Assembly: GCA_030603365.1 (NCBI GenBank) | Contig: JAUVXV010000002.1 | Location: forward strand, 352,001-416,000 | Reading direction: 5' to 3' | DNA: 64,000 bases | Source: Candidatus Heimdallarchaeota archaeon | Lineage (GTDB): Archaea; Asgardarchaeota; Heimdallarchaeia; Heimdallarchaeales; Heimdallarchaeaceae | Shown here: piece by piece, positions 21,098 to 30,895 of the stretch | How the letters are laid out: every line of letters begins with the position of its first letter | Numbering within the stretch: position 1 is the first letter of the stretch | Made by a program: the position numbers and the translations under genes | The notes under the pieces: generated by a model | The model's database searches: none | The model's input: only the letters and a program-made list of their open reading frames with translations | What the model was told of the DNA's origin: nothing

Positions 21098-21586
21098 TTA
21101 CTTAATACTCATTTCCCAAAGAAGTCTAGTAGTTGTGGATCTTTCCCATTTATTTAATGCACTTCTCGCTGCTATTGTCTCTGAAAGAAATTTATGCTGG
21201 AAATCAGCAATAAAATCTATTAGTTTGTCAATTTCTGTTACTTTCTCAAGTAATGCTTCAGAAACATAGAAAGTTATAGAAAAACCAGGTTCTGCTTCCT
21301 TTTGTACAATCCCTGTTGCTTCCGCAAGAGCAAAACTTAATCGCTTTAGCAACATATCATCAAAAGGATCTCTCATTTCAAGTATCAATGAAATTAAACT
21401 TGAATTCCTAGTCTTTTCAATGAATCCATTTTTCAAAGGAAATTGTTTCAAATCCATTTCTCTACAATCTTTACAAACTACACAAGGATAGTTAATCTCT
21501 TTATGTGGGCAAATATAACGTTCTAATTTTAGTGCCTGTCTTATCTTCTCCTTATCTTCATAAAATTCATTTGAATCAGAACTCAT
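21098..21586 (-). CDS. Hypothetical protein with an N-terminal Cys/His cluster
   Basis: CPH...CVVCKDC. Confidence 0.6.
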   Translation of the reverse strand: MSSDSNEFYEDKEKIRQALKLERYICPHKEINYPCVVCKDCREMDLKQFPLKNGFIEKTRNSSLISLILEMRDPFDDMLLKRLSFALAEATGIVQKEAEPGFSITFYVSEALLEKVTEIDKLIDFIADFQHKFLSETIAARSALNKWERSTTTRLLWEMSIK

Positions 21587-21658: not shown

Positions 21659-22114
21659 TCAAATTTCAAATACATCAGCATCTTCAACATCTATTTCTAA
21701 AGATGAATTTCTCGAATTTTTATAGGTAAAAGCAGAAATGATTGATGAAATTGTCTCTTTAAGTTTCCAGAAATATTTGTAACTTTCCACAGGTTTCTTT
21801 TCAAAGAGTGCTAAAGCATCTTTAGAGTTCATTACAGTTTCATTTAGAATGCTAGTAGCTTTGGTCTTTATTCCAGTTCCTTGTAAATTTTCTAAGAAAG
21901 TTTTTTGCCATCTCTCTGTTTTATCTTCTTTTTCCAGTATCATTTTAAATTTAATTATCAGCATTTCTAAATCTGCTCTAAATTGCCATAGTGTGTCTCC
22001 AATTTTATTAGTAGTGGTTTTAGAAATCTCTGAAGTGATTTTGTCCAATGAATTGCAAATTTGTTGGATTTCTTTCTTCAGTTCTTCCTTATTTGGTACT
22101 GGAATTACTTGCAT
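21659..22114 (-). CDS. Hypothetical helical protein
   Basis: 151-aa ORF divergent from the SufS-like gene; no motif. Confidence 0.6.
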   Translation of the reverse strand: MQVIPVPNKEELKKEIQQICNSLDKITSEISKTTTNKIGDTLWQFRADLEMLIIKFKMILEKEDKTERWQKTFLENLQGTGIKTKATSILNETVMNSKDALALFEKKPVESYKYFWKLKETISSIISAFTYKNSRNSSLEIDVEDADVFEI

Positions 22115-22180: not shown

Positions 22181-23386
22181 TTGTTATCTCTCCTAATGTC
22201 TTTTAGGAAAAGCTTTGGCTTAGATTTTCATTTCCCTGAAACTGAAATTTACCTAGATTCCGCTACTTCGGGAAAGATGCCTGTTTCTTCAGTTGAAGTT
22301 ATGAGTAACTATTATACTGAATTAGGAGGAGGAATTAATAGAGGCACTCATAAAAAAGCTGTAAATGCTAATAGAAAACTAGAACAATCACGTTCTACAG
22401 TAGCAAACATTTTCTCAGTAAATTCCAACAATGTTTCTTTTCTTCCCTCTCGAGAAACTGCTTTGATGAACTTTCTTCTATCTGGCATTTTTTCAAAAGA
22501 TAATGAAATAATAGTTAGTTCTTTAGATGATCATTCCATACTTGCACCAGTTTTAAAACTAAGAACAGTATACGATGTGCGTTTAAACTTTCTAAACCTA
22601 CAAGACGAATCAAATCTAGTTGAAGTCATAGAAGAGAGAATTACAGCAGAAACTAAAGCGATAGTTCTTTCAGTTATGACCCTGGGAATGGGAATTAAAC
22701 GAAATTGGAGAAAGATTACAAAAATCGCTCAGGATGCAGAAATACCTTTAGTTCTAGATATAAGCAATGCTATAGGTCATATGGAATTTAATTTCAAGGA
22801 TATAACTCCAGATATCGTAGTTTCTTCTGGAAATATCGGTGCGTTAGGTCCCCAAGGTACTGCTTTTCAAATTGTAACAGAGGACATGATGAAGAAATTT
22901 GATCCCATCTTAGTTGGAGGAGGAACAGTTATGTCTCTAGATAGATCTACCTATAAATTAGCTTCTGGCATTAACAAATATGAACCAGGGACTCTCAACA
23001 TAAGTGGAATTGCAGGATTAGCTAATAGTTTACAATCTTTATCTGAGATAGGTTTTGAAAGGATTACTAAACACGAAATCGAGCTACGAGCAATGCTTGA
23101 AGATGGGTTAAGAAAGACTAACAAATTGAACCTCATCGAACATCAAGGGTTAAATTATGGCCCAATACTCTCGTTTATGAGTGATGAGATAGATTCTCAT
23201 GACATTGCTATCATTCTCGAAGATTTGGGAGATATCTATGTAAGAAGTGGGGCATTATGTTCACATTTGTTCATGGAAGAACTACAAAAAGAATCTCTTG
23301 TTCAGGTTTCTACACATCTTTATAACACTAAAGAGGATATAGAAATTTTCTTAGAAACCTTAAACTCCATAATGTCTGAAATTTAG
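22181..23386 (+). CDS. SufS/CsdA-like class V aminotransferase-fold protein A, PLP-binding Lys replaced by Ile
   Basis: YLDSATSG, INRGTH, SGNIGALGPQG (canonical SGHKGxxGPxG), YEPGTLN, RSGALCSH, HLYNT. Confidence 0.85.
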   Translation: MLSLLMSFRKSFGLDFHFPETEIYLDSATSGKMPVSSVEVMSNYYTELGGGINRGTHKKAVNANRKLEQSRSTVANIFSVNSNNVSFLPSRETALMNFLLSGIFSKDNEIIVSSLDDHSILAPVLKLRTVYDVRLNFLNLQDESNLVEVIEERITAETKAIVLSVMTLGMGIKRNWRKITKIAQDAEIPLVLDISNAIGHMEFNFKDITPDIVVSSGNIGALGPQGTAFQIVTEDMMKKFDPILVGGGTVMSLDRSTYKLASGINKYEPGTLNISGIAGLANSLQSLSEIGFERITKHEIELRAMLEDGLRKTNKLNLIEHQGLNYGPILSFMSDEIDSHDIAIILEDLGDIYVRSGALCSHLFMEELQKESLVQVSTHLYNTKEDIEIFLETLNSIMSEI

Positions 23387-23503
23387 AATTAGTGGGTATC
23401 CATTTATTAGTTACTTTTACTTTCTTTCATTGTTTGAATCACATTCAAGAATATCTTTTGCTAGTTTAAATACCAAACTGCGTATAATAATTCCAGAGAG
23501 TAG

Positions 23504-25711
23504 TTGGTGGAATTTATCTCAACTGAAACTATCACTCGTACATTTCATTTAAATTCAATTGAAACAGAAGAGATATTTTGTTATAGAGTATTTGGAGATT
23601 TTAAATCTGCAGTAAATACTCTAATAAAAGGAGGAATAAACCTCAACAACGAAATTTTCAGAGAAGAGAGTTTAGTTTCAGTAAAGCGGTTCTATTCACT
23701 ATTAAGAAAAAATTCATGTATAAGTGCTAAATTGAGCAAGCTTGAAATTAAAGAACGTTTATTGAGATGTGCTGCTCAGTATGCATATTTTTCTATTCGT
23801 AACCTAAAACAAACAAGAAATTTGTGCAGTGAGATTGCACAAGTAATGAGTGAAGATTCTTCTTGGAATAAATTTCGCAGAGATTCTTGGTTCTTATGGG
23901 ATTTATCTAAAAAATCAAAAAAAAGAAGAGATAATTTGAATGTAAAATTATTAAATCAGATTAAGAACAAACATAATTCTATATATCCTGAACAAAACAG
24001 AATGTGCAATGCACACTTGATAAATAATTATTTCAGACACATTCGAAAAATTATTCTTAGTAATCTTCAAAGGAAGGATATCAAAATCAATATTGATTCA
24101 GAATATTGTATTAAAACAATTCGAGAACATTACAGTTCTGAATACATAGATACTCTGATTAGTAAGTTTAAAACTCAAATTTCAACTTTATTAACTAGAC
24201 AATTCAAGAAATACAAAAAGAATGAAATTTCTGAAAAATCAGATGGAAACAAACAATCAAACGTTCCAGTTTTAAAAACTATTTACTCAATATGTAAAAC
24301 TAAAAAGATTCATAATGTTGAAATTGAAGAATGGAAACTAAAAAAAGAGTTATGGTTGATTAGATATATCGACGAAATTAGAGATTTCTTTAAATCTGAA
24401 TGTGTTAATCAAGAAATTAACAGAGGGATAAAAAGATTACAGGAAAAACCAACAGTGTATTTCCTAGCAATGTTTTTAGAGAAAAAGATTTTCAAATTGA
24501 GAAGAAAAATTCAAGGAGAACCAGTTAGAGATTTCTATTTCTTTCTATCACAAATAATAGATTATCATCTCACTCATCTTATACTCGAAACACAACAGAT
24601 GGTTATTTTACCTAAAATACGCATGATTCTCCTTGATTTCATTCTAAAGCCACTATCTTATCTCAAAATGCCAATCTTTACAAAATCAGTAATCCCTTTA
24701 GGAATCGATGACAATCAAGTTTATACATTGGAAGAGTTACAAAGTGAAGTAAAAATCACTTTGTCCTTTTATCCAAATCAGAAAAAACATTTCAAATTAT
24801 CATCACCAGAAAGATATTTCGAATTAACTATGAATAATGCAAAACCTGCACGAGGAATTCTTTCAGCTCATGGTGGCAAGCTTCAACTTGCTATTCCGTT
24901 TACTAGACGTTTACCAGAGTTATCAAAGATAAAACCTCTTGAAAAACAAAGAATTCTAAATTGTGATCTTGGATTGAAATCTTTTGCTGTTTTGAGTATT
25001 ACAGAAAATGGTTTTGAAACACATAGAAAATTCTTGGATCAAAAACAACTAACGGGTTCAAAAAATTCATGGTTCCTAGCAAAATCATTTAGAAATAAAA
25101 ACACAAAAACACGAGAAAAACCAACTATAAATTATAAATTCAATCTTATGAAACTCCGTAAAAAAATAAATAATTTACAATCAGAACTGAAAATGATGAA
25201 AGAAGAGACGAAAAGAAGAAGATCTAAGAACAAGAATTATCCTAAGTATAAAAATACCAAACTGTACTGGTATAAAAAAAGAGAATTGAAGTCTTACTGG
25301 AACAGAATTAGGAATATTCACAAAGAATTGATACATCAAATTTCTACAAGAATAGTTGAATATGCCAACTATCATCAAGTAGATACTATACGCTTTGAAG
25401 ATCTTCGTTGGACTCAACATTCAGCTAAACATGAAGTTGGTTATTTTCTCTCTTTCTGGCAAGTACATTGGTTTTTCAGCCAGATAATAGAATACACATC
25501 ACAAATTGCTAGAAGATATATGATTAGGTCTGTTCTAACTAATCCATATAAAAGCTCACAAATTTGCTCTACTTGTGAAAAGGAAGGAAAAAGACAAAGA
25601 AAGATATTCATGTGCTCAAATGAACTGTGTGGACTAATACTTGACAGTGATTTAAATGCTGCTCGAAACTTAGGTAAAAAATCACGCAAATGTTATCCTA
25701 TTCGACTATAA
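23504..25711 (+). CDS. Large (735 aa) TnpB/Cas12-like RuvC nuclease with C-terminal zinc ribbon
   Basis: RuvC-I NCDLGLK (D488), RuvC-II IRFEDL (E632), SSQICSTC...FMCSNELC, RuvC-III DSDLNAARNL (D716); Lys/Arg-rich; long uncharacterised N-terminal half. Confidence 0.85.
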   Translation: MVEFISTETITRTFHLNSIETEEIFCYRVFGDFKSAVNTLIKGGINLNNEIFREESLVSVKRFYSLLRKNSCISAKLSKLEIKERLLRCAAQYAYFSIRNLKQTRNLCSEIAQVMSEDSSWNKFRRDSWFLWDLSKKSKKRRDNLNVKLLNQIKNKHNSIYPEQNRMCNAHLINNYFRHIRKIILSNLQRKDIKINIDSEYCIKTIREHYSSEYIDTLISKFKTQISTLLTRQFKKYKKNEISEKSDGNKQSNVPVLKTIYSICKTKKIHNVEIEEWKLKKELWLIRYIDEIRDFFKSECVNQEINRGIKRLQEKPTVYFLAMFLEKKIFKLRRKIQGEPVRDFYFFLSQIIDYHLTHLILETQQMVILPKIRMILLDFILKPLSYLKMPIFTKSVIPLGIDDNQVYTLEELQSEVKITLSFYPNQKKHFKLSSPERYFELTMNNAKPARGILSAHGGKLQLAIPFTRRLPELSKIKPLEKQRILNCDLGLKSFAVLSITENGFETHRKFLDQKQLTGSKNSWFLAKSFRNKNTKTREKPTINYKFNLMKLRKKINNLQSELKMMKEETKRRRSKNKNYPKYKNTKLYWYKKRELKSYWNRIRNIHKELIHQISTRIVEYANYHQVDTIRFEDLRWTQHSAKHEVGYFLSFWQVHWFFSQIIEYTSQIARRYMIRSVLTNPYKSSQICSTCEKEGKRQRKIFMCSNELCGLILDSDLNAARNLGKKSRKCYPIRL

Positions 25712-25838
25712 GTTAAATAGGAGGGGTTTCCGTTTAATCCCAAATTAAGTTGCTCAGAAGAGCAACTTTGAAAATTCGGTCACTTAAGCTTCTTTCTGGC
25801 ATAGCTTCAAGCTTCACCAAATGCCTTTCGATCATTCC
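25696..25838 (+). ncRNA. Putative omega-RNA/right-end RNA of the TnpB-like gene
   Basis: Consecutive hairpins 25696-25722, 25723-25741, 25747-25768 (perfect 9-bp stem) and 25786-25807, then TTCAA/TTCAC resembling IS200/605 right ends. Confidence 0.45.
25819..25838 (+). repeat. 20-nt repeat, copy A
   Basis: aaatgcctttcgatcattcc versus aagtgccttccgatcattcc at 28862..28881 (18/20). Confidence 0.75.
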
Positions 25839-25947
25839 GTATATATTGGTTGTACAATTGTATATACAAAAGTTTCTATATCTGAAGAATGCAATAACAT
25901 TGATATTCTCAGGTTATTTTTTTCCAAAGATTAAGAAAAGATTATTC

Positions 25948-26184
25948 TTATTGTATATATTCTGTTTCTTCTTTTTCTAGAAGTAGATAAATTCTATCAA
26001 AGTTTATTTGTTCTGCAGCTGCACTTCTTTCTGTATTTTTTGTTATCTTCCAATCCTTGATTGTATATCCTTCTGGAAGTTTATCAAATGCATCTTTTAT
26101 AGCCTTATCAAGTATTTCAATTCCTTCTGAAGTAAATATCGCTGTATTTACATCTAAATATTTCAGTTCATATCTCGATCCCAT
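25948..26184 (-). CDS. Small hypothetical protein
   Basis: 78-aa ATG ORF with protein-like composition. Confidence 0.6.
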   Translation of the reverse strand: MGSRYELKYLDVNTAIFTSEGIEILDKAIKDAFDKLPEGYTIKDWKITKNTERSAAAEQINFDRIYLLLEKEETEYIQ

Positions 26185-26415
26185 TCAAATCAATGTAAAA
26201 CAACATAATTTCTTTAAATACTTTTTGAACAACCATTTCTTCCCAAAAAATTTCTATTGTTTGTATACTTTCTATCATTTATCTTTTTTTATTTCTATGA
26301 TTTCCTTTCTTAATTCAAGTACTTCTTCATATATTGACAACTTCATTAGCTCCACAACTTACTCTACAAAGAAAACCCTTCGTAGGTGGATATTTAAGAA
26401 TTGTTGACAAAGAAG

Positions 26416-26452
26416 TGTAATACGTCCTGTAATACACGTTCTATGCATTACA
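26416..26452. promoter_or_regulatory. Operator-like TGTAATRC repeats
   Basis: tgtaatac at 26416 and 26428, inverted gcattaca at 26445, just upstream of a TATA-like element (tatttaag) and ORF 26490. Confidence 0.4.
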
Positions 26453-26489
26453 AAGGTATTTAAGATAAAAAAACTAATTATTATTTGAC

Positions 26490-26744
26490 ATGGCTAAAAA
26501 ATACAGAATTAGTGAAAAAATAAGAAAAAAGATGAGAAAGGACAAATCCTCACTCTTTCCCTTACCTTTGAAAAAGAAGGTCGAAGTAGCTTTGTGTTAC
26601 AGATGTAATAGAAACAAATCTACTAAATTGTGCCTTAATTGTAGAAAACCTATTTGTAATCCTTGTGAAACAAAAAATCCTAAAGGTTATTGCGTTCCTT
26701 GTAGAAATGAAAAATTCGGTTTTGTATCATTTACTTTTGAATAA
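26490..26744 (+). CDS. Small basic zinc-finger protein (B-box-like, 8 Cys)
   Basis: CYRC-x8-CLNCRKPICNPC-x8-CVPC. Confidence 0.7.
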   Translation: MAKKYRISEKIRKKMRKDKSSLFPLPLKKKVEVALCYRCNRNKSTKLCLNCRKPICNPCETKNPKGYCVPCRNEKFGFVSFTFE

Positions 26745-26797
26745 AGATTTGATGAATTGTTCCGCGTAGAGATAATTCAAATAGTTCTATATTATGT

Positions 26798-27007
26798 TTA
26801 TATTTTCTTATTTCTTGATCTACGCTCTATGATGATAAGTAACAGACCTATTGCAAGAAATCCAATTGCTGCAGGTTGAATCCACATTGCCATCGATCCT
26901 CCTGAAAAATCTTTTACAAACCAAATTATAGTAAAAACTATACCGATGATTAAAACTATCGGACCAATCAAAATTCTAAAAGTTATTTTTTCTAATAAAC
27001 TCATCAC
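26798..27007 (-). CDS. Small two-TM membrane protein
   Basis: Two hydrophobic helices, basic tail, strong SD-like ggaggtaa upstream on the minus strand. Confidence 0.65.
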   Translation of the reverse strand: MMSLLEKITFRILIGPIVLIIGIVFTIIWFVKDFSGGSMAMWIQPAAIGFLAIGLLLIIIERRSRNKKI

Positions 27008-27185
27008 GATTTACCTCCCTCCATTCTGTGAGAGAGTACAGGATTTTTCTCACATTTTTAAAAAGTAACCGATTATCTGTAGTAAAACTATTTTCTTTTT
27101 TTACCATTTTACGACCAAACCGAAATCTAAACAATTCAGATAAAAACTAAGAATTAACTAACAATCAAAGAAGGATGAGATCTTA

Positions 27186-28475
27186 ATGAATAAAAACATA
27201 GTATATGGAAGCACATTGATAGTTGTTTTTTTAAGTGCAGGAATACTTACTGGTTATTTTATTCCGCAAAATAATCAGGCACAATATGATACACTACTAT
27301 CAGAATTTCAAGATTTGAATGAGGTATATAATGCTCTTTTAGAGGATTACAATACTCTACTAGGGAATTATACTGAAATAAAAGAGAAATGCGATATAAT
27401 AACTGGAGAATACGATTCTTTGAATGAAACCTACTACAACCTGTTAGAAGAGTATACTTTGTTGAATGAAACCTACAATGAATTGTTGGTAGATTATAAT
27501 ACCTTTGTAGAATCTTTCAACACATTGCAGATAGCTTATGATCAACTAAATGATTTATATTCACAACTTCTGATTGATTATGCTGTTTTTGAAAATGAAT
27601 ATAATGCTTTACTCCAGAATTATGATTTGTTGACAGCATGGATCAGAGGAATGACTTTACCTGCTCAGTACATGGTTTTTGCTGAGGCTGTTAGAAGATA
27701 CTACTTTGAAGATTTTTATGTTAAAGATACTTGGGCTACGGGAAATGAAACAGGATATTTTGCAGAATATGCACTATTCAGTCGTGATATAGTTTTGCAC
27801 GATTCTGATTTGTCATTGAAAGGAGAATTATTTGCTGAAGTATCAAATGCTCTTTCTGATTGTTTGATATATGGGAATGAAACTGAAGGCTTAGCTTGGA
27901 TGTGTATGATTGGCGTGTTTTATCCTTGGCTTCCTAATTGGAGTGGATATTATTCGTCTGGAAATGAACTAACTGATATTGATACAATAGTTCAGTGGTG
28001 CATTGATGAGATCGACTACGAATATGATACAACTATAACATATGGACAAGAACTTTATTTTTGGGATTATGTCAAGTTTCCAGTCGAAACAGCTTTCAGA
28101 ACAATGGGGGATTGTGAAGACCAAGCTCTATTCTGTGCAGCTTATCTAGAATCTTGTGGATTTCAAACTGCACTAGCATTATTTCATGATGCTGAAAATC
28201 CTATTAGTCCTGATGGTTTTTATCATGCAACTTTGTTAGTACATATAGAAGACCTAGCAAACTTTCAGTTTTGGCATCCATTTTGTCCTTTGTGGAGTCT
28301 AAGTGACATAGATCCATATGAAGGATATACTTGGGTATGGTTAGATTCTACTTGGGATGTCTCGTTTCCGTCAAAACCTGGATGGATGCAATACTACCTT
28401 GATAATGGAATAAATGATGACGATCTTACAATAGTACTATGTGACTTAAATGGAGCTACTAGCTATGCTCCTTAG
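27186..28475 (+). CDS. Membrane-anchored coiled-coil protein with a transglutaminase-like cysteine protease domain
   Basis: N-terminal TM, heptad repeats (YNxLLxxYxxL), IDYEYD, PVETAFRTMGDCEDQA (Cys), YHA (His), WLDSTW (Asp). Confidence 0.8.
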   Translation: MNKNIVYGSTLIVVFLSAGILTGYFIPQNNQAQYDTLLSEFQDLNEVYNALLEDYNTLLGNYTEIKEKCDIITGEYDSLNETYYNLLEEYTLLNETYNELLVDYNTFVESFNTLQIAYDQLNDLYSQLLIDYAVFENEYNALLQNYDLLTAWIRGMTLPAQYMVFAEAVRRYYFEDFYVKDTWATGNETGYFAEYALFSRDIVLHDSDLSLKGELFAEVSNALSDCLIYGNETEGLAWMCMIGVFYPWLPNWSGYYSSGNELTDIDTIVQWCIDEIDYEYDTTITYGQELYFWDYVKFPVETAFRTMGDCEDQALFCAAYLESCGFQTALALFHDAENPISPDGFYHATLLVHIEDLANFQFWHPFCPLWSLSDIDPYEGYTWVWLDSTWDVSFPSKPGWMQYYLDNGINDDDLTIVLCDLNGATSYAP

Positions 28476-28641
28476 CAATTTTTTTTCCTCTTAATTAATT
28501 ATACTTATACGTAAGCAATCTGCTTACAGAGATTTAAACCTCGAGCAGTAAGAAGTTTGTTTGTGATCTTACATTAGTCGTGGAGAAATGGCTTTAAACT
28601 TATGTTTAATGATTCGTATGGCTTTTTTGTTTCTTATATTA

Positions 28642-28783
28642 TGTCTCACCCCTCACTGTTTTTCAACTGTTTAACCCTGCTTTTTCTGGGAAGATTTTCC
28701 TGCTGATCCAGACCACAGAAAGTTCTTGTGCAGAGGAAAGGAAAGGAAGGGTTGAGACGAGAGAAGAGAGAAGGGGTGATACA
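28642..28783 (+). ncRNA. Unclassified structured RNA candidate (long rod with two apical hairpins)
   Basis: tcacccct/aggggtga, gtttaaccct/agggttgagac, ctttttctg/cagaggaaag, inner ggaa/ttcc and cacagaa/ttcttgtg stems; GC-rich relative to flanks; G-U pairs favour the + strand. Confidence 0.5.
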
Positions 28784-28861
28784 CACTAGTATAGATCTTA
28801 CAGAAATTTCTTTCGTTTCCGAAGATAGATATTTATTAAAGAGTAACCATAAAAAAAATGG

Positions 28862-28881
28862 AAGTGCCTTCCGATCATTCC
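28862..28881 (+). repeat. 20-nt repeat, copy B
   Basis: 18/20 match to 25819..25838; ends about 90 nt upstream of the ATG at 28972. Confidence 0.75.
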
Positions 28882-28971
28882 CAACTAGTATATTGTGAGT
28901 AAATATAGAAACTTTTTGATTTTAGAACAAGTAAAGTTTTAATACAGAATAAATAATAGAAAAACGAAATT

Positions 28972-30165
28972 ATGTCGTCTATAACACGATTTGGAATCGA
29001 GTTTAACATAAGATCTAACCAAATATATCTAGATTCTGCAACCATTGGTAAAATGCCTATTTCCTCAATTAAAGCCATTTCTGATTATTATCTAGATGGG
29101 GGAAGTGTACCAGTTAGGGGAATGCATAATGAAATTTCTCAAAGTAATAATTTTCTAGAAGAAAAAAGGGGAGAGCTAGCAAATCTATTTCAAGTAGAAC
29201 CTGTTCAAATTTCGTTTTTTCCTTCAAGAGAATCCAACTTAACAAGTATCCTTTATTCAATAGAAGATATCAAAGATAGGAGGATTATAACTAGCGTTCT
29301 TGAAGAACACTCTGTAATTGGTCCTGCTATCAGAGCTAATAATGATCATGGAACAGAAATAGATTATTTGAATGTAAAAAACGAAACAAATCTGTTAGAG
29401 AGCATTAATCAGAAGGTAAATTCCGAACAAGATATTCTGCTTTTATCTTCTTTAACTTCAACCAACGGAGTTAAGAGAGATTGGTCTGAGATAGCTAAAG
29501 TCTGCAAAGACACTGGTGCAACTTTTCTTCTTGACATAAGTTATTCTTTAGGTCATGAAGAGCTAAATTTCAAAGAAATTTCTCCTGATGTTGTCTTCGC
29601 ATCAGGTTGCATTGGTGCATTAGGACCCCCTGGAACAGCTTTTCAAATCACTAAAAAAGAGTTTTATGATAAGATGGATCCATTAATTGTGGGCGGAAAT
29701 TCAATAATTACTTTGGAAGAAGAGTATTATTTACTTACATCTTCAGGTTCTAAATTCGAGACAGGACTCGTTAATTGTGCAAATATTAGTTCGATGGTAA
29801 ACAGTTTAAGGATATTATCAAACGTTGGCTTTTCTAAAATTCAGGATCATGAAAGTAAATTAAATAATTTCCTAAGAAAAGAGTTAGAAAATTTACCATA
29901 TATTGAAATCAACAGTGTAGAAAATGTGGAATATGGTCCTATCATCTCCTTTGGCAGTAATAAAATTGAAGCTCATGATCTGGCTATAGTTCTAGAAGAC
30001 TTGAAGGATATCCAAATAAGAAGTGGAGCTCTCTGTTCTCATCTTTTCATGTATGAATTACCATTCAATGATATTTTGAGGGTATCTACGCACCTTTACA
30101 ATACAGAAGAAGAGGTGAAAATATTCATTGAGACACTTTCCTCAGTCTTAAGTGAGATGTCTTAG
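28972..30165 (+). CDS. SufS/CsdA-like protein B, PLP-binding Lys replaced by Ile; paralog of 22181..23386
   Basis: YLDSATIG, PVRGMH, SGCIGALGPPG, FETGLVN, RSGALCSH, RVSTHLYNT. Confidence 0.85.
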   Translation: MSSITRFGIEFNIRSNQIYLDSATIGKMPISSIKAISDYYLDGGSVPVRGMHNEISQSNNFLEEKRGELANLFQVEPVQISFFPSRESNLTSILYSIEDIKDRRIITSVLEEHSVIGPAIRANNDHGTEIDYLNVKNETNLLESINQKVNSEQDILLLSSLTSTNGVKRDWSEIAKVCKDTGATFLLDISYSLGHEELNFKEISPDVVFASGCIGALGPPGTAFQITKKEFYDKMDPLIVGGNSIITLEEEYYLLTSSGSKFETGLVNCANISSMVNSLRILSNVGFSKIQDHESKLNNFLRKELENLPYIEINSVENVEYGPIISFGSNKIEAHDLAIVLEDLKDIQIRSGALCSHLFMYELPFNDILRVSTHLYNTEEEVKIFIETLSSVLSEMS

Positions 30166-30637: not shown

Positions 30638-30895
30638 TTGACAATCATAGCTCAGCATATGAAATGTGATTTCAGAGACAGATGTGCTTCTTGTAGTAAA
30701 TATCTATGGTCACCTAAACAGAAAGGCAGGTATTTTTATTGTACAGATTGTAAATCAGATATACTTTGTGATAGAGGTTTAATTCAAAATTTCTCAACTG
30801 ATAAAGATGGTATCATTCAGAAAAAGAATCTTTGTATGAAGTGTAATAATGAGGTTATAGAAAAAATTTGGCCAGAAGATACTCTGGAATTATAA
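30638..30895 (+). CDS. Small Cys-rich zinc-finger protein
   Basis: CASC...CTDC...CDRG...CMKC; SD-like gagg upstream. Confidence 0.65.
   Translation: MTIIAQHMKCDFRDRCASCSKYLWSPKQKGRYFYCTDCKSDILCDRGLIQNFSTDKDGIIQKKNLCMKCNNEVIEKIWPEDTLEL

Follow-up and report, generated by a model that had tools for sequence, protein, structure and literature searches.

What can remain of a cysteine desulfurase when the lysine that binds its pyridoxal 5'-phosphate (PLP) cofactor is gone and the cysteine that carries the persulfide is kept? This question is raised by two genes, A and B, of Candidatus Heimdallarchaeota archaeon (genome G000), which lie in a stretch of 64,000 nucleotides (nt) of contig JAUVXV010000002.1. 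This whole stretch is called the window below; its G+C content is about 32-33%. Both genes encode SufS-like proteins in which the Schiff-base lysine has been replaced. The comparisons described here show that A and B belong to an Asgard-wide branch of SufS-like proteins that lost the PLP site long ago, with the fold and the cysteine loop kept by selection. Such a family probably handles sulfur or iron-sulfur (Fe-S) clusters without cleaving cysteine itself.

Cofactor site, cysteine loop and age of the family

The open reading frame (ORF) of A extends mechanically from 22181 to 23386, with a TTG at 22181 and the frame open. Its true start is likely the ATG at 22196, which gives the 396-residue form that is also present in the protein database. 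The reading frames of A and B are both intact, and their products are 44% identical in a gap-free alignment. The Aminotran_5 domain (PF00266) covers positions 1-371 of 371 in each of them (E 3e-63 for A and 8e-59 for B). SufS and CsdA are the top curated families for both proteins, with scores under half of the family cut-off: the 475.1 bits of TIGR01979 (SufS) were not reached by A (211 bits) or B (196 bits). For TIGR02539 (SepCysS, cut-off 365 bits) only 30-35 bits were obtained, over a short stretch. The closest solved structure is the cysteine desulfurase of Thermococcus onnurineus (5b7s, 29% identity), followed by SufS of Bacillus subtilis, and IscS of Archaeoglobus fulgidus (4eb5) is a weak sequence match of A. 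An AlphaFold2 model of A (predicted local distance difference test score, pLDDT, 92.6) superimposes on SufS structures with a template modelling (TM) score of 0.90. A search of the ESM Atlas returned generic class V aminotransferase clusters and nothing else. By best matches and fold, A and B are homologues of type II (SufS-like) cysteine desulfurases.

In the alignment to 5b7s, SGNIG of A is found opposite SGHKG, DisN (DISY in B) opposite DaaQ and RSGALCS opposite RSGHHCA. This agrees with the first-pass annotation of the window, which had read SGNIGALGP in A and SGCIGALGP in B with both isoleucine codons placed exactly, had noted the change of DGAQ to DISN or DISY and had described two full-length genes without frameshift in which RSGALCSH keeps its cysteine; the cysteine is indeed in register. 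The substitutions that it listed in the active site are borne out as well, and the list proved to be incomplete. Compared with 22 lysine-bearing relatives, the invariant canonical histidine of EHH, which stacks on PLP, has been replaced by Asp or Glu in the A/B family, and the phosphate-binding threonine by an invariant Glu. The glutamine at O3' of PLP has become Asn, Tyr or His, the histidine before the lysine Asn, Ser or Cys, and the conserved asparagine of the SN-x-x-G loop Leu or Val. Directly before the loop cysteine, His-His is replaced by Ala-Leu (GHHC to GALC). The sole classical PLP contact that is retained is the aspartate to the pyridine N1, which is invariant.

The position of the Schiff-base lysine itself varies among the homologues (I, S, N, A, H, L, V, M and R), which indicates that no functional residue took over there. 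Another lysine as Schiff-base donor was rejected, as no lysine column is conserved across the 91 close homologues described below; the best alternative column has Lys in 83 of 91 and swaps it with Arg, Asn and Met. Because the Schiff-base lysine and most PLP contacts are replaced, A and B most likely neither bind PLP covalently nor desulfurate cysteine. The names given to these genes in databases, 'aminotransferase class V-fold PLP-dependent enzyme' or 'cysteine desulfurase/selenocysteine lyase', are probably wrong on both counts. The loop cysteine is 100% conserved, and R-x-G-x-x-C is invariant in the close set as well as in the wider lysine-less alignment. The position of the substrate-binding arginine is occupied by Gln in 100% of the A clade and by Arg in 100% of the B clade. 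A second cysteine, at the old histidine position, is present in 81% of the B clade. The threonine of E-x-G-T is kept in A and is Leu in B. Fixed in A and B, and unlike canonical SufS, are E87, H113, R169, W171, S190, Q225, S278, L354 and H357.

The close set was obtained in a word-indexed search of 5.8 billion proteins and consists of 91 full-length relatives with 42-72% identity, all of them from Heimdallarchaeota or Heimdallarchaeaceae where named. His-Lys is absent from every one of the 91 and R-S-G-x-x-C is kept in every one. The change of lysine to isoleucine, the conservation of which the first-pass annotation had proposed to examine, is therefore conserved as a loss of lysine together with a kept cysteine, and not as a gain of isoleucine. 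The same annotation had reasoned that a lysine retained in close orthologues would indicate recent decay; none of the 91 retains it. Among sequence pairs whose synonymous sites are not saturated (dS 0.13-0.39), the ratio of nonsynonymous to synonymous substitution rates (dN/dS) was 0.14-0.22 for A and 0.13-0.28 for B. The identity to the closest orthologue is 72% for A and 69% for B. These values, together with the tandem arrangement of A and B in 15 genomes (see below), uphold the earlier idea of a selected pair that is not decaying.

The family is not confined to this close set. A profile run against 1.8 billion representatives brought up about 30 more 50%-identity clusters that lack His-Lys and have in common the signature D-x-S/T-R, G-N/S-I/L-G-L-L-G-P, R-S-G-x-L-C-x-H and V-Q-x-S-x-H. 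The named members belong to Promethearchaeota, Lokiarchaeia, Kariarchaeaceae and Ranarchaeia. In whole genomes, motif-checked lysine-less genes are present in nine Asgard families (f1-f5, f15, f27, f30 and f31); profile scores of lysine-less and lysine-bearing genes overlap (lysine-bearing matches score 387-394 bits), and only motif-checked loci were counted. Invariance in this wider lysine-less family is limited to R-x-G-x-x-C, Q-x-S and some glycines. The substrate-arginine position is Gln in all 22 wider lysine-less sequences that were aligned; one further cluster, outside the alignment, has Arg. Judged from these sequences Gln is the usual state of the family and the Arg of the B clade the exception, which implies that A did not lose an arginine after the duplication. 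The difference between Gln in A and Arg in B had been seen correctly in the first-pass annotation; its explanation as a loss in A is not retained.

A maximum-likelihood tree places the lysine-less sequences in one clade (support 99), with an A clade of 45 rows (support 96) and a B clade of 44 rows (support 99). Genera of this family that have a single copy, like two further families (f2 and f3) of its order, branch at or below the split between A and B. This indicates that the lysine was lost before the A/B duplication. The A/B pair is one lineage-specific duplication within a much older Asgard family of lysine-less proteins that is mostly single-copy, and the function of the family therefore cannot depend on two paralogues. 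Of the selected pseudo-enzyme pair proposed earlier, the selection stands, and the pair has to be seen as a lineage-specific duplication in an older family. On this comparative evidence the loss of the lysine is old and maintained under selection, and does not reflect recent decay.

Possible roles of the loop cysteine

The best-supported mechanism, for which we put the chance at about even, is that of a PLP-independent protein that would use its loop cysteine as a persulfide carrier or as a cluster ligand. Support comes from the absolute conservation of the cysteine loop, from the parallel with A. fulgidus IscS (see below) and from the genes that accompany some distant family members. In one version of this mechanism, the loop cysteine would receive a persulfide and hand it on; the persulfide would come from a genuine desulfurase, such as the product of a lysine-bearing SufS-like gene, or from sulfide. 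In another version, it would be lent as a ligand during the building or delivery of Fe-S clusters, as in the lysine-less IscS of A. fulgidus.

Two genera of family f15 have a true SepRS gene (518 bits versus a cut-off of 381) next to the lysine-less gene (Table 1); the two are on one strand, SepRS first, with 33 nt between them. The SepRS-linked genomes encode a canonical SepCysS elsewhere. Genome G065 has a tight, co-directional operon of three genes, with the lysine-less gene in third place. The first encodes a DndC-like 3'-phosphoadenosine 5'-phosphosulfate (PAPS)-reductase/4Fe-4S protein and the second a 732-residue protein with a methyltransferase domain; a helicase/PLD gene converges on the operon. 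This locus looks like a phosphorothioation or BREX-like defence system with the lysine-less protein in the slot of the sulfur donor. A persulfide donor would be expected at both the SepRS and the DndC-like loci, and these contexts point to sulfur delivery. A substitution of SepCysS by A and B themselves was considered and rejected, as G000 has no SepRS and the SepRS-linked genomes keep their canonical SepCysS. Neither SepRS nor SepCysS was found in G000, and no Dnd-like neighbour of A or B was found either.

A lysine-bearing SufS-like gene with a complete site is present in G000 on contig C1 (28415-29572), a contig other than that of A and B. A lysine-bearing SufS-like gene also accompanies the lysine-less one in each of the four further Asgard genomes that were checked (5/5 with G000). 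About 9 kb before the window, an IscS-like gene adjoins the only IscU (NifU_N) gene of the genome (C15:342787-344345; L004:908-2646). It keeps the lysine (SSNK) and the loop cysteine; inspection by eye shows Ser in place of the Gln at O3' of PLP, Asn in place of the His before the lysine and Leu in place of the substrate arginine. By these residues the IscS-like gene may not encode a standard desulfurase. G000 and 20 of 24 genomes from its genus gave no match to the SufB/D core (PF01458), these being metagenome-assembled genomes that are incomplete (72-92%).

The four genomes of the genus that have the SufB/D core carry a longer form of 415-426 residues. Among the 30 genomes of the family that were surveyed, a 316-residue form occurs in three of the four other genera and none was seen in genus g3.

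Several observations weigh against a carrier or ligand role in sulfur metabolism. No sulfur or Fe-S partner was found in the gene neighbourhood of A and B in Heimdallarchaeaceae. SufE was not found in G000, which is 89% complete, and the single IscU gene lies beside the IscS-like gene and not beside A or B. The SepRS and DndC-like contexts belong to distant family members, in no more than two genera each. Besides, the aspartate to N1 of PLP and a neighbouring histidine are kept, so that the old pocket could still hold some ligand.

This last point bears on the idea that A and B are still B6 enzymes, which would bind PLP or pyridoxamine 5'-phosphate (PMP) non-covalently and catalyse a reaction without internal aldimine, as ColD and E1 do. 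Fold-type I enzymes without the lysine exist, and the invariance of the aspartate that pairs with the pyridine nitrogen would be expected of such an enzyme. However, the lysine position, at which ColD and E1 have His, accepts various residues here, most of them aliphatic or small; an invariant Glu stands in for the Thr that binds the phosphate, and none of the contacts made by His, Gln, Asn and His is left. This makes retained B6 chemistry quite improbable. A new enzyme activity in a rebuilt pocket, which would bind another ligand or a metal and in which newly fixed residues such as Glu87, Arg169 and Trp171 would carry out a different reaction together with Cys355, His357 and His374, would account for a residue set that is fixed in A and B and differs from canonical SufS, and for the second cysteine in most of the B clade. 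Most of these fixed residues are nevertheless not conserved in the wider lysine-less family, and H374 and H357 also occur in some lysine-bearing relatives; such an activity is considered improbable.

A non-catalytic partner or regulator, which would carry no sulfur itself but, like many pseudoenzymes, would bind to an active desulfurase or some other complex and modulate it or serve as its scaffold, and for which the cysteine loop would be no more than a docking surface, agrees with the disappearance of the whole PLP site from a maintained fold and with the coexistence of a lysine-bearing SufS-like gene in all genomes checked. A docking surface explains less well why the cysteine itself is invariant in more than 110 sequences, for which thiol chemistry is the better explanation, and the active SufS-like gene is unlinked to A and B. 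We regard this role as rather unlikely. Finally, loss of the catalytic lysine is the usual first sign of decay and the pair is disrupted by insertions in G000, as would be the case for recently inactivated genes on their way to pseudogenes. This explanation is refuted by the conservation data: both frames are intact, dN/dS is low throughout (0.13-0.28), the same loss is shared by all homologues across Asgard families and the ortholog identities of A and B are as expected. It can be considered practically excluded.

The use of the loop cysteine for persulfide transfer or cluster ligation thus remains the preferred reading, and it can tentatively be made more specific, at a clearly lower level of confidence. 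The family might be a dedicated PLP-free, SufS-derived persulfide carrier for SepCysS, Dnd-like and other nucleic-acid-linked or cofactor pathways, or a new Fe-S assembly factor, and in Heimdallarchaeaceae it might act as an asymmetric A/B heterodimer with one Arg-bearing site that is centred on B and completed by the threonine of A. SufS enzymes are dimers in which each site is completed by the partner subunit, the E-x-G-T threonine being contributed across the interface. Given that SufS dimers share their sites, that A keeps this threonine where B has Leu and that B alone has the arginine, an A/B heterodimer is plausible from the sequences.

Sulfur trafficking in anaerobic archaea is poorly understood, and the in vivo donor of SepCysS and the minimal sulfur supply for Fe-S clusters are open questions. 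If the proposed role is correct, a conserved cofactor-less SufS derivative would be a concrete candidate, open to testing, for a sulfur carrier or cluster-ligand protein that does not depend on a desulfurase, in a family that spans the closest archaeal relatives of eukaryotes.

The A-B locus and its surroundings

The coordinates of the features are collected in Table 1. The two genes stand in tandem in 15 genomes of the genus, where a spacer of 156-228 nt separates A from B within a long syntenic block. G000 alone has an insert of about 5.5 kb between the two genes, which contains a TnpB-like ORF, a transglutaminase-like ORF and small ORFs; no transposase gene was found near the TnpB-like ORF. 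The duplication in Heimdallarchaeaceae gave the tandem A-B arrangement, and later insertions separated the pair in this genome with both genes unharmed. As both genes are undamaged, have similar identities to their orthologues and the TATA-like box is intact, the split probably silenced neither of them, and B has probably retained a promoter of its own in spite of the insert.

Table 1. Position of features in the window and, where a locus number is given, at the loci of distant family members
Feature	Position	Strand	Remarks
ARPC4-like gene	21098-21586	-	
151-residue helical ORF	21659..22114	-	Divergent from A; no functional link to A evident
Gene A, lysine-less SufS-like protein	22196..23386	+	396 residues; based on ORF, domain, structure alignment and model
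SGNIG of A, replacing SGHKG	22826..22840	+	Ile codon 22835-22837 (ATC) at the Schiff-base Lys position
RSGALCSH loop of A	23243..23266	+	Cys codon 23258-23260, the catalytic/persulfide Cys of SufS
VQVSTH of A	23300..23317	+	Gln at the position of the Arg that binds the substrate carboxylate
Insert between A and B	23387..28861	.	About 5.5 kb, in this genome only
TnpB-like ORF, 735 residues	23504-25711	+	Sole Pfam match: C-terminal Cas12f1/TnpB zinc-ribbon domain
Full copy of the A-B spacer block of the genus	25778..25838	+	Downstream of the TnpB-like ORF
Transglutaminase-like ORF	27186-28475		Within the A-B insert
Second copy of the 3' 20 nt of the spacer block	28862..28881	+	Directly upstream of the B promoter region
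TATA-like box aaagttttaata	28933..28944	+	About 30 nt upstream of the ATG of B; common to relatives
Gene B, second lysine-less SufS-like paralogue	28972..30165	+	397 residues
SGCIG of B, replacing SGHKG	29602..29616	+	Ile codon 29611-29613 (ATT); Cys at the His position
RSGALCSH loop of B	30019..30042	+	Cys codon 30034-30036
LRVSTH of B	30076..30093	+	Arg at the substrate-Arg position
85-residue Cys-rich protein	30638-30895	+	Several CxxC; without family match
SepRS, first f15 genus	L097:9600-11168	-	
Lysine-less gene, first f15 genus	L097:8364-9566	-	
SepRS, second f15 genus	L056:5-1363		
Lysine-less gene, second f15 genus	L056:1501-2685		
Three-gene operon of G065	L100:4310-9626	+	Lysine-less gene is the third gene

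In the relatives, part of the spacer between A and B is taken up by a block of about 61 nt (GGTCACCTTAGCTTCTTTCTGGCAT..GC..ACCAAATGCCTTnCGATCATTCC), which has 38 invariant columns in 14 genomes (e.g. L041:9294-9473 and 13 other spacers) and is more conserved than the flanking genes A and B. A single full copy of this block was found in G000, and it now lies inside the insert; the copy of its 3' end precedes B, and a degraded look-alike is present after A at about 23410-23470. The block is native sequence and not a TnpB-borne RNA, since relatives without any TnpB carry it. A known or structured RNA was rejected as an explanation: no significant match was obtained in Rfam (best E 0.35) and the predicted folding is weak (RNAalifold -1.7 kcal/mol), with a hand-drawn hairpin that has a compensatory change in one lineage only. 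New at this locus are the insertions that split the pair and what became of the conserved spacer block.

The neighbourhood of the genes in Heimdallarchaeaceae comprises two radical S-adenosylmethionine (radical-SAM) genes, the ARPC4-like gene, the 151-residue helical ORF, the 85-residue Cys-rich protein, a LarA-like gene and a major facilitator superfamily (MFS) transporter; it contains no partner that turns up again outside the family. The ARPC4-like gene beside A and the names of the close homologues both mark the source as an Asgard archaeon of the Heimdallarchaeaceae type. The ARPC4-like gene and the 151-residue ORF are the most persistent neighbours of A-type genes, even in genera in which other synteny is lost. 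The Cys-rich protein is among the best-conserved products of the neighbourhood (81-92% identical in the six loci of genera g1 and g2 that were compared and 70% in g4 and g5), and its gene adjoins the LarA-like gene in g1, g2 and g4. Across Asgard, no conserved operon partner was found in the families compared (f1, f15, f27 and f31). The lysine-less gene is accompanied by an unknown 331-residue protein and GlmS in f31, by endonuclease V downstream in f27 and f15, and by the 151-residue ORF upstream in f1; the two upstream ORFs of these families are not homologous to each other.

Comparison with known systems

A and B resemble SufS and CsdA (5b7s and the SufS enzymes of B. subtilis and Escherichia coli) in fold (TM about 0.9), in the short loop with R-x-G-x-x-C, in length and in domain order. 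They differ from them in the absence of the Schiff-base lysine, in the replacement of the His, Thr, Gln and Asn that contact PLP and in scores far under the SufS cut-off. Literature searches turned up no paper that describes SufS-type proteins of Asgard archaea without the lysine, which does not mean that none has been published.

ColD and E1 are PMP-dependent sugar dehydratases of fold-type I (DegT family), which have His in place of the lysine and no internal aldimine and in which the cofactor site is kept. In the A/B family, by contrast, the lysine position is variable, mostly Ile, Ser or Val, and the cofactor and phosphate site is dismantled.

A likeness to DndA, the sulfur donor of DNA phosphorothioation, and to the donor that supplies SepCysS lies in the position of the distant lysine-less members, which is the one where a donor is expected. 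DndA is a lysine-bearing, PLP-dependent enzyme of the IscS type, whereas these members have no lysine, and A and B have no Dnd-like neighbour.

Lysine-less proteins of the IscS type with a kept cysteine are already known. In IscS of A. fulgidus (PDB 4eb5, 4eb7 and 4hvk) the lysine is replaced by Asp and desulfurase activity is absent, and its loop cysteine ligates a [2Fe-2S] cluster on IscU (PMC7585200; PMC13066941). IscS1 of Methanosarcina acetivorans is also without the catalytic lysine (PMC7585200). Like these two proteins, A and B are desulfurase homologues of anaerobic archaea in which the lysine is replaced and the loop cysteine kept. Unlike these two, which are of type I and encoded beside IscU, A and B are of type II and have no adjacent scaffold gene; much more of their PLP site is gone, and their family is Asgard-wide with a tandem duplicate in one family. 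If the role proposed here for the loop cysteine is correct, the single studied precedent, A. fulgidus IscS, would be extended from type I to type II enzymes.

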